The notes below the pieces were generated by a model that searched no databases, was not told the DNA's origin, and saw only the letters and a program-made list of their open reading frames with translations. This document shows, piece by piece, positions 7,300-64,000 of a stretch of 64,000 bases of DNA (positions are counted from its first letter, which is position 1; every line of letters starts with the position of its first letter). Made by a program: the position numbers and the translations under genes. This DNA comes from Bacteriovoracia bacterium (GTDB lineage Bacteria; Bdellovibrionota; UBA1018; JBFWNL01): the NCBI GenBank assembly GCA_050251055.1, contig JBFWNL010000008.1, positions 1 to 64,000 on the forward strand, in the 5' to 3' direction.

Positions 7300-7417
7300 G
7301 TTTTCAGACATCGCACAACAGTATCCCGCTCAGCATTTTCCTCTAAAAAGGCACGGCACCGGAGGGGGACGCGCTTGCGGGCCGCGAGGGAGCCCGGGCT
7401 GCAGCCGAGCCCTCAAT

Positions 7418-42111: not shown

Positions 42112-42255
42112 GCTTCCTATCCGCCCTCGATAAGTCTGGCGCACCGTATAATACAGATAAATAGGTGTCAACGCTCACGCAGGCGCTGGAATCTCGGGGG
42201 AAAATCGTATACGGAAACGAAAGCCTTGAAGTAAGATTCCGGTAAGTTTCCCGTC

Positions 42256-42339
42256 GCTCGCGTGGTGGAATGGCAGACACGCTGGTCTTAGGAACCAGTG
42301 CCGCAAGGCGTGGGGGTTCGAGTCCCTCCGCGAGCACCA
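42256..42339 (+). tRNA. tRNA-Leu(TAG)
   Basis: GCTCGCG/CGCGAGC acceptor stem, CTGGT-CTTAGGA-ACCAG anticodon arm, long variable arm, CCA. Confidence 0.96.
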
Positions 42340-42478
42340 ACCTTAGTTTTGTTTTCAAAAAAAATACTCCGCTCATGGGGGGACGCCCATCCACGGGCTC
42401 GACCCTTCTTTCCCTTCCTGGACCGGGCCCCCCCATGAGCGGAGTATTTTTTTTGAAAACAAAACTAAGATTGGTGCT
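42333..42478. repeat. tRNA-adjacent fold-back element A (50-bp arms, 46-nt loop)
   Basis: 42333-42382 is the reverse complement of 42429-42478 with one mismatch; the loop core is shared with element B. Confidence 0.92.
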
Positions 42479-42656
42479 GGCTATAATAATGAAACGCGTA
42501 ACGTTTCGTGCCTTGCGGAGGGACTCGAACGGCGGAAGGCGGGTCCCGTTTCTCGACACCTTCCCATGAACTCAGAGTCAATTTCCGACGTCAAACTTCT
42601 GACGATCGATGCTTATCCGAATTGCAGTCACAACCGATAAGCTTTACAGGTCCACC

Positions 42657-43349
42657 ATGTATCACATCTTAGTTGTCGAAGACGGAGCCGACACACGGCT
42701 CCTCCTAAAGAAAGCGCTGAGCGGTATCGCCGCCGAGCTGCACTTCGCCGAAACCTTGGAAGCCGCGCGCGCGGAGCTCACACAGATACGCCCGCATCTG
42801 ATTATCTTGGACATCGAGCTACCCGATGGCGATGGCCTGCAATTCTGCAGCGAACTGCAGGCGCAGGGAGATTTTACCGACGTCGCCTACCTATTTCTTA
42901 CGGGACAAAAGTCCACGCCCCAGAAGGTGGCCGCATTCGCCATGGGCGCCGAGGACTTCATCGAAAAACCCTTCAATCCCGTGGAGCTCAAGGCACGCGT
43001 CGAAGCCCGTCTGCGCAAGCTCGCACAACGTCTGCGTGAGGAGCAAGTGCTCGTTCGCGGCGATCTTACCTTAAACGCCACTTCTCACCGCGCGTTTCTC
43101 AAGGGACCTAAAGGGGAAGAATCCATCGCGCTTACCCCGCGTGAATTCCGCCTGCTGTTTTACCTGGCCCGGCACGAAGACCACGTACTTACCCGTGATC
43201 AGATTTTAAGCGCCGTCTGGGGCGATGCCGCTCAGGTCTTCGACCGTACGGTCGATACCTACATTTCCAATCTGCGCCGAAAACTAAAAACGGCCTCGAG
43301 TTACCTCGAGGCCGTTCCTGGTACAGGATATCGATTCACCACTACCTAG
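42657..43349 (+). CDS. OmpR-family response regulator
   Basis: ILVVED, LDIELPDGDG, KPF, LTPREF, DRTVDTYISNLRRKL, GTGYRF. Confidence 0.95.
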   Translation: MYHILVVEDGADTRLLLKKALSGIAAELHFAETLEAARAELTQIRPHLIILDIELPDGDGLQFCSELQAQGDFTDVAYLFLTGQKSTPQKVAAFAMGAEDFIEKPFNPVELKARVEARLRKLAQRLREEQVLVRGDLTLNATSHRAFLKGPKGEESIALTPREFRLLFYLARHEDHVLTRDQILSAVWGDAAQVFDRTVDTYISNLRRKLKTASSYLEAVPGTGYRFTTT

Positions 43350-63609: not shown

Positions 63610-63685
63610 GGGTAGGTAGCTCAGTCGGTAGAGCAGCGCCCTGAAAAGGCGCGTGTCGGCGGTTCAATTCCGTCCCTACCCACCA
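63610..63685 (+). tRNA. tRNA-Phe(GAA)
   Basis: GGGTAGG/CCTACCC acceptor stem, GCGCC-CTGAAAA-GGCGC anticodon arm, CCA. Confidence 0.96.
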
Positions 63686-63881
63686 CTCTGTTTTTCCGAT
63701 CAATAAATTCTCCACTTTTCATTCAATCATAAAAAAAGTCAGCACCGGTAGGGGACGCCCATCCATGGGCTTGACCCTTTTTTCCCTTCCTGGGCCGGGA
63801 CACCCCTACCGGTGCTGACTTTTTTTATGATTGAATGAAAAGCTGAGAGATGGCGGCCGGGAAAACGGAGTGGTGGGTAGG
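63675..63881. repeat. tRNA-adjacent fold-back element B (40-bp perfect inner arms plus outer arms pairing the tRNA 3' end)
   Basis: 63715-63754 is the exact reverse complement of 63803-63842; 63675-63697 pairs with 63859-63881. Confidence 0.92.
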
Positions 63882-64000
63882 TATATAAATGCCGTAGGGC
63901 AGGAGCCCGAGATCTTGGCCTAGAGGGCCGAAGCGCATTCCGTCCCTAAAATTGTGCAGGTAAACTAACCGAATAGCCCAGCTGTTCACAGAGGCCGACT

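Follow-up and report, generated by a model that had tools for sequence, protein, structure and literature searches.

Why should a long hairpin that begins inside the 3' end of a tRNA gene keep its loop constant and its arms variable? This question is raised by a fold-back downstream of tRNA-Leu(tag) in a stretch of 64,000 nucleotides of contig JBFWNL010000008.1 from a Bacteriovoracia bacterium (hereafter the window). A preliminary description, made from the sequence alone, had reported that the arms start within the tRNA, that the loop (here called the core) recurs in an element behind tRNA-Phe, and that a TATAAT and an antisense copy of the tRNA T-arm region lie beyond the right arm; each of these features was recovered (Table 1). 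The last 10 nt of tRNA-Leu(tag) are the start of the left arm, and a repeat search gave arms of 53 nt each, 96% complementary and 46 nt apart, with an A tract (42355-42362) and a T tract (42449-42456) both inside the paired arms. The Leu core contains mini-hairpin 1 (GCCC-ATCCAC-GGGC), stem 2 (GACCC/GGG.C) and mini-hairpin 3 (CCC-TTCC-TGG), and is identical to the Phe core at 41 of 45 positions (42383-42427 against 63755-63799), all four differences being transitions. The antisense copy, A', matches 42316-42334 over 19 nt at 95% and includes the perfect 16-mer described earlier. The RNA fold of 42256-42560 reaches -172.8 kcal/mol (z = -12.5), and the core was matched in none of 100 shuffled sequences, a control for chance. 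In a sigma-70 promoter and terminator scan of 42150-42750 the sole call was the small hairpin in a minus-strand reading; the TATAAT and the large hairpin were not called. RNA runs contained at most a small fraction of the words sampled from 42200-42700.

Table 1. Features of the three tRNA-linked copies in the window.
Feature	Positions	Strand	Basis
tRNA-Leu(tag)	42256-42339	+	ARAGORN; Rfam tRNA
Leu left arm: tRNA 3' end (..GCGAGCACCA), trailer with A8 tract, terminal G6 run	42330-42382	+	repeat search
Leu apical core, subfamily a	42383-42428	+	core match, alignment
Leu right arm: complement of trailer (T8 tract) and of tRNA end (TGGTGCT)	42429-42481	+	repeat search
TATAAT, -10-like box, 4 nt before small hairpin	42482-42487	+	sequence
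Small hairpin H (GAAACG-CGTAA-CGTTTC), first helix of module	42491-42507	+	sequence, module alignment
A', antisense of tRNA-Leu T-loop, T-stem 3' strand and acceptor 3' strand	42512-42530	+	repeat search
Scaffold start, ~18-20 nt (GGCGGAAGGCGGGTCCCG), then break	42531-42551	+	nhmmer
tRNA-Phe(gaa)	63610-63685	+	ARAGORN
Phe outer left arm (tRNA end and trailer), partner 63858-63881	63675-63698	+	repeat search
Phe inner left arm, partner 63803-63848	63709-63754	+	repeat search
Phe core, subfamily a	63755-63802	+	core match, alignment
Phe right arms, inner then outer, ending in tRNA-end complement	63803-63881	+	repeat search
Phe TATATAA box, degenerate internally deleted module, direct repeat	63884-63948	+	repeat search and sequence reading
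Remnant 3' of tRNA-Lys(ctt)	7300-7409	+	sequence; nhmmer

The Leu fold-back is genuine. A 106-nt contig of run X1 (perhaps the source sample) covers 42353-42458, that is the core and the inner ~30 nt of both arms, with zero differences, and the same architecture recurs at at least 15 other tRNA loci and in dozens of assemblies; therefore the fold-back is not a product of assembly, a concern that the preliminary description had raised.

Genome-wide, the core pattern has 20 matches in 3.77 Mb and none in the backwards control. The core sites comprise 15 tRNA genes, with 13 motif matches lying 35-70 nt 3' of a same-strand tRNA gene and two further sites at tRNA-Val(gac) and tRNA-Leu(gag), and at least 5 non-tRNA hairpins, where the cores have near-perfect arms of their own, 35-70 nt long, and fill gaps between convergent ORFs. 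The orientation of the core is that of the upstream gene at the 15 tRNA sites and at the 5 sites that follow mechanically called ORFs. A complement of the last 7 nt of the gene, continued by at least 10 nt more of arm, follows 16 of the 46 tRNA and tmRNA genes of the genome. The pattern had no match in the JGI metagenome contigs scanned, and a motif sweep with a looser pattern, which returned mostly noise, was excluded. When arms of different copies are compared, G/C runs and A/T tracts are all that is common to them, while several of the long hairpins share an internal loop in which a GAGTTCTCGG-type motif stands opposite an A/T-rich motif in otherwise unrelated arms. In 3 of 11 aligned copies, mini-hairpin 1 of the core has GCGC/GCGC in place of GCCC/GGGC. 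Covariation in stem 2 was seen by eye, and the consensus fold recovered mini-hairpin 1 alone; since stem 2 is shifted by one column between the core subfamilies, its covariation rests on reading the sequences.

The conserved loop and variable arms, which the preliminary description had rightly set apart from MITEs and REP doublets, are best read as structural conservation with a free stem sequence. Like MITEs, REP/REPIN elements and BIMEs, these are multi-copy intergenic hairpin repeats, but they conserve loops and not arms and have no transposon-type target-site duplication; a MITE or REP element with conserved arms was rejected because the arms do not align between copies. Like an intrinsic (bidirectional) terminator, the Leu hairpin lies directly 3' of a gene and has a G+C-rich stem between A and T tracts, but its arms of at least 50 nt continue past these tracts into the tRNA, so that the T8 lies inside an arm, and its loop is 45 nt. 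In relatives, hairpins that start in the tRNA 3' end occur without the core (L028, L035, L038, L041, L043 and L053); their loops are of the GAA, GAGA or GAAA type and 3-8 nt long, and these short-loop hairpins resemble classic intrinsic terminators. The existence of the same hairpin without the core indicates that the core is an optional loop insert and that the arms are not caused by it. On this reading the apical loops, behind tRNA and protein-coding genes alike, house the core as a small, separate insert with a structure of its own.

The hairpin makes up only the left side of a unit of 180-350 bp. The unit starts with the last ~21 nt of the tRNA, comprising A (positions 56-68) and B (the acceptor end with CCA), followed by the trailer, C. 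Then come the optional apical core and two segments, C' and B', which are complementary to the trailer and to the last 6-10 nt of the tRNA respectively, and after these a -10-like box, hairpin H, A', a scaffold of ~105 nt and finally A and B once more as a direct repeat. The preliminary description had not covered the Phe outer arms with the tRNA end that they include, the downstream module, the direct repeats or the spread across the phylum. All three copies in the window are decayed, their modules being truncated or internally deleted. At tRNA-Leu(tag) the nhmmer match (42485-42551) spans model positions 5-75 only, and this locus has no distal direct repeat. At tRNA-Phe the repeat search found a 12-nt direct repeat, ATTCCGTCCCTA, at 63937-63948, equal to 63667-63678 inside the tRNA. 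The Lys remnant consists of a left-arm-like trailer ending in G5 and the first 6 nt of the core, fused directly to helix P1 of the scaffold, of which the 3' half is retained (nhmmer 7347-7408, model positions 48-107).

Searched with nhmmer, the module has 11 matches in the genome. In 68 copies, 92.2% of the cells of its helices are paired (68.5% in shuffles), both sides have changed in 39 of 43 pairs, and the covariation score is 0.587 against 0.168 when shuffled and ~0.06 with partners slid, in an alignment that was fitted to the model and so leans towards structure. These values indicate that the module is a structured element with compensatory base changes, as RNA or as a DNA strand. The helices hold 65 G.U-type against 36 A.C-type cells among 2861, a weak discriminator of RNA from DNA, and a count of G.U against C.A mismatches in the arms was excluded because it came from minimum-free-energy folds and was biased by the folding. 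In 17 of 66 copies the model start is preceded, at a distance of 7-8 nt, by a -10-like box (at least 5 of 6 positions). Among the Rfam 15 covariance models only tRNA reaches its gathering score, leaving the module without a family; at E up to 1 there are 14 more matches, all far below gathering scores, to several miRNA-precursor families (on the hairpins), Plastid-ycf2, TwoAYGGAY, tmRNA_permuted, PsiU2-55 and CLRN1-AS1. A literature search of titles and the openings of abstracts returned nothing on such units. The module is probably a previously uncatalogued structured element of ~140 nt. A covariance-model search of 116 genomes from the order detected it in 22 and in none of the other 94, and a search of 151 genomes sampled across the phylum detected it in 23. 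Named genome records, scanned with an exact pattern, yielded 12 matches, 10 of them in records titled Bdellovibrionales, Bdellovibrionia, Oligoflexia or Bacteriovoracaceae; viral contigs held no match to the module pattern, and a comparison with phage and plasmid records in distant mode gave none either.

The module is tied to tRNA genes. A same-strand tRNA gene lies at most 221 nt upstream of 48 of the 66 fetched copies, and 38 of these 48 have a distal direct repeat of at least 8 nt, whose start is exactly 21 nt before the tRNA end in 29 of the 38 and whose length is exactly 21 nt in 10. The direct repeats extend through the CCA into the trailer. In this genome most of them are only 8-12 nt long and are not followed by the remaining tRNA sequence. 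A' matches the unit's own tRNA at 10 or more of 12 positions in 31 of 42 units, compared with 1.5 when tRNAs are permuted among units. One scaffold family occurs at 20 or more different tRNA species, the occupied tRNAs vary from genome to genome, and the scaffolds cluster by genome, not by tRNA identity.

Several observations bear on the movement of these units and their decay. Behind tRNA-Gly(ccc), one genome (G101) has a unit where its congener (G102) has a 57-nt spacer, which provides the occupied and empty sites called for by the preliminary description; the intergenic flanks are too diverged for base-exact junctions, and neither an excised form nor a precise empty-versus-filled junction was seen in the genomes compared. 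Tandem or partial second units are found in this genome at tRNA-Arg(acg) and tRNA-Gln(ttg), and elsewhere at L037, at L033 and in G101, while in G164 units are interleaved within a tRNA cluster. Partial second units often end at hairpin H or A'. Units can enclose cargo: a 1155-aa ORF with an NPPY motif lies between core and module remnant at tRNA-Asn, and two modules in G031 flank LysR, DUF3892 and DUF4431 genes. Truncation or internal deletion affects many copies. In G031, three near-identical scaffolds have upstream sequences that cannot be aligned, a pattern that gene conversion or scaffold-only transfer fits better than movement of whole units.

A dedicated enzyme was sought beside the units and in the genome. 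Among 242 ORFs at 43 loci, no protein family recurs beside the units except where the same locus was fetched twice or flanking genes are orthologous. The preliminary description had pointed to RAYT/HUH, reverse transcriptase or integrase genes as possible partners. The genome, which is 93.5% complete, has no match to the Y1 (HUH) transposase (PF01797), the reverse transcriptase (PF00078), the IS110 DEDD transposase (PF01548) or TnpB (PF07282); candidate identities as a RAYT/REP system, a retron, an IS110 bridge RNA or a TnpB omega RNA were rejected on these grounds. Recombinases are present (8 tyrosine and 2 serine genes); none adjoins a unit and their number is far below that of the different occupied tRNAs. 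At one locus (L047) an integrase gene lies upstream, and was rejected as the unit's own enzyme since a tRNA 3' fragment lies between them; it looks like part of a separate island stacked at the same tRNA.

The reading that we favour, with belief and doubt about evenly balanced, is that the units are integrative cassettes, miniature and protein-less, whose point of entry into tRNA genes is the T-loop. Such a cassette would enter between positions 55 and 56 and would supply a replacement tRNA 3' end; its long hairpin may terminate or insulate transcription of the tRNA, and it would also carry a separately promoted structured module. The clamp of the module, in which A' pairs with A and is extended by B' with B, would rebuild the duplex of the tRNA 3' end, as a folded attachment site of the kind known from integron attC and CTX-phage attP, or else as a guide. 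The arms would be locus-specific because they are built on each cassette's own tRNA end and trailer and are constrained in their pairing alone, and the loops, core and scaffold, would be under sequence constraint.

The units resemble known systems in part. As in genomic islands and CIMEs that tyrosine recombinases have integrated at tRNA 3' ends, there is an intact tRNA with a distal direct repeat from the T-loop, tandem accretion, possible cargo, and presence or absence among relatives. Unlike those islands, the units measure 180-350 bp without an integrase, one scaffold family serves at least 20 tRNA species, and the units carry antisense copies of the target (A' and B') together with a covarying module. 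Of the marks of a tRNA-targeting element, the distal direct repeat and the occupied and empty sites were thus found, and an own or cognate integrase was not. In integron attC and CTX-phage attP sites, an imperfect hairpin has paired ends that span the recombination junction and rebuild a target-like duplex, and integron cassettes form arrays adjoining one fixed site. The likeness of the units to attC was drawn from fold logic alone, namely the paired ends across the junction; attC has a variable loop, whereas the units have a conserved loop, a target-specific stem and no IntI-like gene adjacent. The bridge and seek RNAs of IS110/IS1111 and the omega RNAs of TnpB/IscB are structured scaffolds flanked by short target-complementary segments, but in the units these segments are 11-19 nt long and pair with each other.

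Among the alternatives, it is unlikely, though it deserves to be taken seriously, that hairpin, core and module form a non-mobile host apparatus that serves the tRNA at its 3' flank. The hairpin would then terminate or insulate tRNA transcription or sequester the 3' end of the precursor, the core would be a putative protein or RNase binding site, and the module would be a tRNA-specific small RNA that acts on the tRNA or its gene through the clamp, in processing, in quality control, as a spare 3' part or in protection of the attachment site. The preliminary description had offered a related possibility, a conserved site in a pre-tRNA trailer able to pair back onto the tRNA, with which the covarying mini-helices of the core and its constant co-orientation with the upstream gene are compatible. 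The strong covariation of the module, the occurrence of units across the phylum, the lack of a linked recombinase and the -10-like box at a fixed distance in some copies also argue for a host function. Such a function is difficult to reconcile with the patchy distribution in the order, with occupied tRNAs that differ among genomes, including one site filled in one congener and empty in the other, and with the many truncated or internally deleted copies, among them all three in the window. Nor would a regulatory RNA predict repeats that run through the CCA into the trailer, tandem units or cargo.

The preliminary description had also suggested that the core drives local inverted copying of its flanks. 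In its extended form, which we consider improbable, the core, and likewise the scaffold, would be the mobile or active part that provokes snap-back or template-switch synthesis, so that flanking DNA is inverted by copying of the quasi-palindrome correction or tandem-inversion-duplication type, and selection on the tRNA would set the copying direction and give a zig-zag of sense, core, antisense, scaffold and sense. Tandem inversion duplications and quasi-palindrome switching yield sense-antisense-sense segments with junctions at hairpin-forming sequences, and the order seen in the units (S, core, S', scaffold, S) is the expected outcome of such switching. Of the inverted repeats in the genome that have arms of at least 25 nt, 39 in all, at least 21 enclose a core-family loop, the non-tRNA cores have their own near-perfect arms, the arms of the long hairpins are nearly free of mismatches, and G.U-type pairs are rare in the module helices, as for templated DNA. 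As a general cause, however, copying driven by the core is not supported, since hairpins that start in a tRNA end occur without it, and unlike the junctions of tandem inversion duplications those of the units consist of conserved, covarying elements that recur from locus to locus and from genome to genome. The conserved internal loop within unrelated arms characterizes a structural family and is no side effect of copying, a conserved box and hairpin H break the antisense copy at a fixed place, and the distal repeat starts at one tRNA position in most cases, which points to a site-specific event.

A more elaborate form of the cassette reading, which we hold to be quite doubtful, would make the units the integrated form of rod-shaped, single-stranded circular cassettes of ~180-350 nt, which would consist either of DNA or of RNA that has a DNA copy. 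In the folded circle A/A', B/B' and C/C' would be paired, core and scaffold would close the rod as a loop at either end, and beside the scaffold the final 21 bp of the tRNA gene would be restored as a duplex. A putative recombinase, a candidate own or host enzyme, would read the structure of the scaffold, while the clamp would pick the tRNA. Finally, a fold-back chimera of short-read assembly can be dismissed as extremely improbable, for although one X2 contig joins opposite strands at 42383/42429 and the contigs break near tRNA-Leu and the arms, the X1 contig crosses the core without differences, the design recurs with the core in tRNA orientation here and in many independent assemblies, and core and module carry compensatory substitutions.

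If the favoured reading, that of miniature cassettes entering tRNA genes, is correct, the conserved loop and unrelated arms that raised our question would be explained without assembly error, and Bdellovibrionota would harbour an uncatalogued, covarying element of ~140 nt, multi-copy and spread through the phylum, that is tied to tRNA 3' ends in the majority of its copies. That one scaffold family is present at so many tRNA species, and is accompanied at each by sense and antisense copies of the local tRNA end, raises the possibility that the choice of target may rest on base-pairing or a folded mimic of the target and not on a tRNA-specific integrase; target choice set by pairing would be a new use of tRNA genes as integration platforms. 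Were the circular-cassette reading true, Bdellovibrionota would have an integron-like cassette platform that can be programmed through base-pairing and has tRNA genes as its docking sites. The order of tRNA, hairpin, module and repeat would also provide a model for annotating unexplained intergenic DNA in this phylum.

The fold-back element that the preliminary description placed after tRNA-Leu (42333-42530) was accurately described, and its tRNA, arms, core, TATAAT and antisense copy were all confirmed. Its arms, recovered by a repeat search of the window, are 53 nt long and 96% complementary. As RNA, the interval 42256-42560 has a predicted fold of -172.8 kcal/mol (z = -12.5), in which the antisense segments pair back up to the T-arm. 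The core, a conserved structured insert in the apical loop of the hairpin, indeed recurs after tRNA-Phe (63755-63799), with four differences from the Leu core, all of them transitions. A contig of sequencing run X1 spans the Leu core and both inner arms; because X1 is possibly the source sample itself, more weight goes to recurrence in numerous independent assemblies, and an assembly artefact is excluded for practical purposes.

Positions of the tRNA-linked features in the window and of the second module type elsewhere in the genome (G000)
Feature	Position	Remark
tRNA-Leu(tag)	42256-42339	
Leu inverted repeat, left arm	42330-42382	starts inside acceptor 3' strand and CCA
Leu core, 45 nt	42383-42427	between arms
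Leu inverted repeat, right arm	42429-42481	
TATAAT after Leu right arm	42482-42487	
Small hairpin after Leu TATAAT	42491-42507	
Leu antisense copy of tRNA T-arm and acceptor region, 19 nt	42512-42530 vs 42316-42334	
Phe element, outer arms	63675-63698 and 63858-63881	tRNA end again included
Phe element, inner arms	63709-63754 and 63803-63848	
Phe direct repeat of T-arm, 12 nt	63937-63948	
Remnant unit after tRNA-Lys(ctt)	7300-7409	
Second module type	G000 C4:265369, C9:105993, C2:198510, C6:190233	downstream of right arms

Across the genome containing the window (3.77 Mb, 21 contigs), the core pattern with at most one mismatch has 20 matches, against 0 for the backwards-read control. Of the motif matches, 13 lie 35-70 nt past a same-strand tRNA gene, and core variants occur at two further tRNAs (Val-gac, Leu-gag). 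Each of these tRNA-linked copies has long arms of its own, beginning in the 3' end of its tRNA; a complement of the last 7 nt, continued by at least 10 nt more of arm, accompanies 16 of the 46 tRNA/tmRNA genes. Within the core, three of 11 aligned copies have the covarying stem GCGC/GCGC in mini-hairpin 1 (GCCC-ATCCAT-GGGC); stem 2, read by eye, covaries around a constant A.A mismatch, and mini-hairpin 3 is GCC-ATCCT-GGC. Cores also occupy long hairpins past mechanically called protein ORFs, at five sites between convergent ORFs, always in the orientation of the upstream gene. Long inverted repeats (arms of at least 25 nt within 260 nt) number 39; the core pattern flags 17, at least four more hold the core or a variant by eye, and several of the long hairpins share an internal loop that is conserved and has a GAGTTCTCGG-type motif on its right-arm strand. 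These observations make the conserved loop between unrelated arms the signature of a structure-constrained family, and not that of a MITE turned upside down. Between one convergent ORF pair lie two opposite-oriented core hairpins (C1:358785 and C1:359201), each core oriented like its own nearer gene. Two further core-bearing hairpins (C2:198300-198400 and C4:191909) begin in tRNA-like 3' ends (..GAGTTCGAATCTCACTCTCTCCGCCA and ..GGTCGGTCCGCCA, respectively), where ARAGORN called no tRNA; these could be tRNA 3' fragments that were displaced, or genes that were missed.

Reading 420 nt past every tRNA gene identified a module to the right of the hairpin, composed, in order, of a -10-like box, hairpin H, GTACCTTA, an antisense copy of tRNA positions ~56-68 that is specific to the locus (A'), a conserved scaffold of ~105 nt and a sense copy (A) of the same positions, which in some units extends through the acceptor strand and CCA (B). 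This genome holds 11 matches, 8 of them near full length, and no Rfam family matches core or module. A covariance model gathered 68 copies from the fetched loci; in these, 92.2% of cells are paired vs 68.5% in shuffles, 39 of 43 pairs have changed on both sides, and the covariation score is 0.587, against 0.168 when shuffled and ~0.06 with partners slid, in an alignment that leans towards structure because it was fitted to the model. As pairing and covariation exceed the shuffled controls, the module is a true structured element, whose folding strand could be RNA or single-stranded DNA. G.U-type pairs are few (65 cells vs 36 of A.C type), and 17 of 66 copies have a TATAAT-like box (at least 5/6) 7-8 nt ahead of where the model starts. 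Hairpins at tRNA-Ser(tga), tRNA-Ser(gga), tRNA-Val(gac) and C2:198k are followed by a second, different conserved module (CGACTTCCTTRGAGAT ... AAATCGAAC), in two tandem copies at the last, and this module likewise has antisense tRNA pieces; tRNA-Lys(ttt) and tRNA-Cys have yet other scaffold types.

Broken copies are common, and all three window copies are among them. The Leu module ends ~18 nt into the scaffold, the Phe module has an internal deletion, and the Lys(ctt) remnant, in which the 3' half of helix P1 of the scaffold comes immediately after the trailer ending GGGGG and the first 6 nt of a core, looks like the product of a deletion between core and scaffold. The truncated Leu module, at 42531-42560, and a truncated module of locus L033 (genome G030), after its second A', both run on as ..GGGT.C..TCTCGACAC, which may be chance or a short alternative module ending. 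About 110 nt past the Leu module, an ORF starting MYHILVVEDGADTRLLLKK.. (from 42658 onward) looks like a response-regulator receiver domain.

The association of the module with tRNA genes is systematic and precise. Among the fetched loci, a same-strand tRNA gene ends at most 221 nt upstream of 48 of the 66 module matches, and more than 20 tRNA species have units. A direct repeat of the tRNA, at least 8 nt long, lies at the module 3' edge in 38 of the 48 tRNA-linked copies. Of these 38 repeats, 29 have their start precisely 21 nt short of the tRNA end, at position 56 in the T-loop; ten repeats are exactly 21 nt, and others, where a further unit follows, continue into trailer sequence and reach up to 68 nt. 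In 31 of 42 units, at least 10/12 positions of A' match the unit's own tRNA; permuting the tRNAs gives 1.5 such units. B', which complements the extreme end of the tRNA, is shorter, typically 6-7 nt, and reaches 8/9 in 8 of 42 units (0.7 in the control).

The core is optional, and the hairpin is independent of it. Spacing between tRNA and module varies in other genomes: a 13-nt spacer at L049; a hairpin of only B and B' (6 bp) at L053; a terminator-like hairpin at L028, L035, L041 and L043, with a stem of B, an A tract and a G+C stem under a GAA/GAGA/GAAA-type loop; and a long hairpin with core-like inserts in its loop at L029, L031, L032, L036 and L047. These inserts have two mini-hairpins in common, with ATCC(A)T or TCCT loops, and the stems show compensatory changes between two genomes of one genus.

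Several observations are signs of unit mobility. At tRNA-Gly(ccc), genome G101 has a unit and same-genus G102 a plain 57-nt spacer. A second unit, in tandem or partial, is present at Arg-acg and Gln-ttg in this genome and also in relatives, and a tRNA cluster of G164 has units interspersed among its genes. The scaffold tree, built on 39 copies (8 dropped by the extraction pattern, partial copies excluded), often has as nearest neighbours one genome's copies at different tRNAs and not same-tRNA copies across genomes. Units can also enclose cargo genes. Past tRNA-Arg(cct), locus L098 (G031:C31:190500-197500) has a pair of near-identical modules separated by 2.7 kb, and an identical 25-nt repeat comes after each. 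Between them are three co-oriented genes, for a LysR-type regulator, DUF3892 and DUF4431. At tRNA-Asn (L023, G000 C4:52900-57400), the stretch from core to degenerate module contains, on the opposite strand, an ORF of 1155 aa that carries an NPPY motif; it is possibly a DNA methyltransferase, and Pfam returned nothing above threshold, only a sub-threshold DUF5098 match. At L101 (G164:C115:8300-10800), from a different order and a small genome, the tRNA genes of the Gly-Tyr-Thr-Trp cluster have units between them, and a partial second unit (box and hairpin H) stops 5 nt before tRNA-Thr, as if that gene's leader.

Of 116 same-order genomes, 22 have the module by covariance model (1-9 copies each), as do 23 of 151 sampled across the phylum, other orders included. 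Scanning named species genomes with the exact pattern yielded 12 matches, 10 of them in MAGs that bear the titles Bdellovibrionales, Bdellovibrionia, Oligoflexia or Bacteriovoracaceae and two under the titles 'bacterium' and 'candidate division WWE3'; the lineage is accordingly taken to be Bdellovibrionota. Viral contigs, phage records and plasmid records yielded no module match.

The search for an enzyme of the units found none: the genome has no RT, IS110-type, TnpB or Y1 gene. It encodes eight tyrosine and two serine recombinases, none adjoining units, and among the neighbours of units at 43 loci no recurrent protein family was seen. The L047 integrase was rejected as the unit's enzyme, a tRNA fragment lying between the two; it looks like part of a stacked island.

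We propose that the units are miniature protein-less integrative cassettes recombining with tRNA genes at the T-loop, which we infer to be the most likely mechanism, with about an even chance of being correct. Two rivals are less likely: a host apparatus that serves tRNA 3' ends and is not mobile, and the initially suggested origin of the arms by fold-back or template switching. Each cassette would supply a replacement tRNA 3' end, its hairpin would end or insulate the tRNA transcript, and it would carry a structured module with a putative promoter of its own. A circular or single-stranded unit could fold into a rod with A/A', B/B' and C/C' (C being the trailer) paired, core and scaffold as end loops and hairpin H as a side branch. 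Such a fold would rebuild the duplex of the tRNA's last 21 bp beside the scaffold, which could allow one scaffold family to use many tRNAs. In this arrangement the unit would resemble the attC sites of integrons or the attP site of CTX phage, which are folded. The cassette reading is strained by the short distal repeats in this genome, by the absence of any excised form and by the near-identical scaffolds in otherwise unalignable G031 units, which suggest that scaffolds alone were transferred or underwent gene conversion. Comparable units were found neither in Rfam nor in those parts of the literature that were searched, and we would class the units as tRNA-targeted integrative elements carrying a new family of structured element. 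If the clamp sets targeting, there is a small but real chance that they would represent something categorically new.
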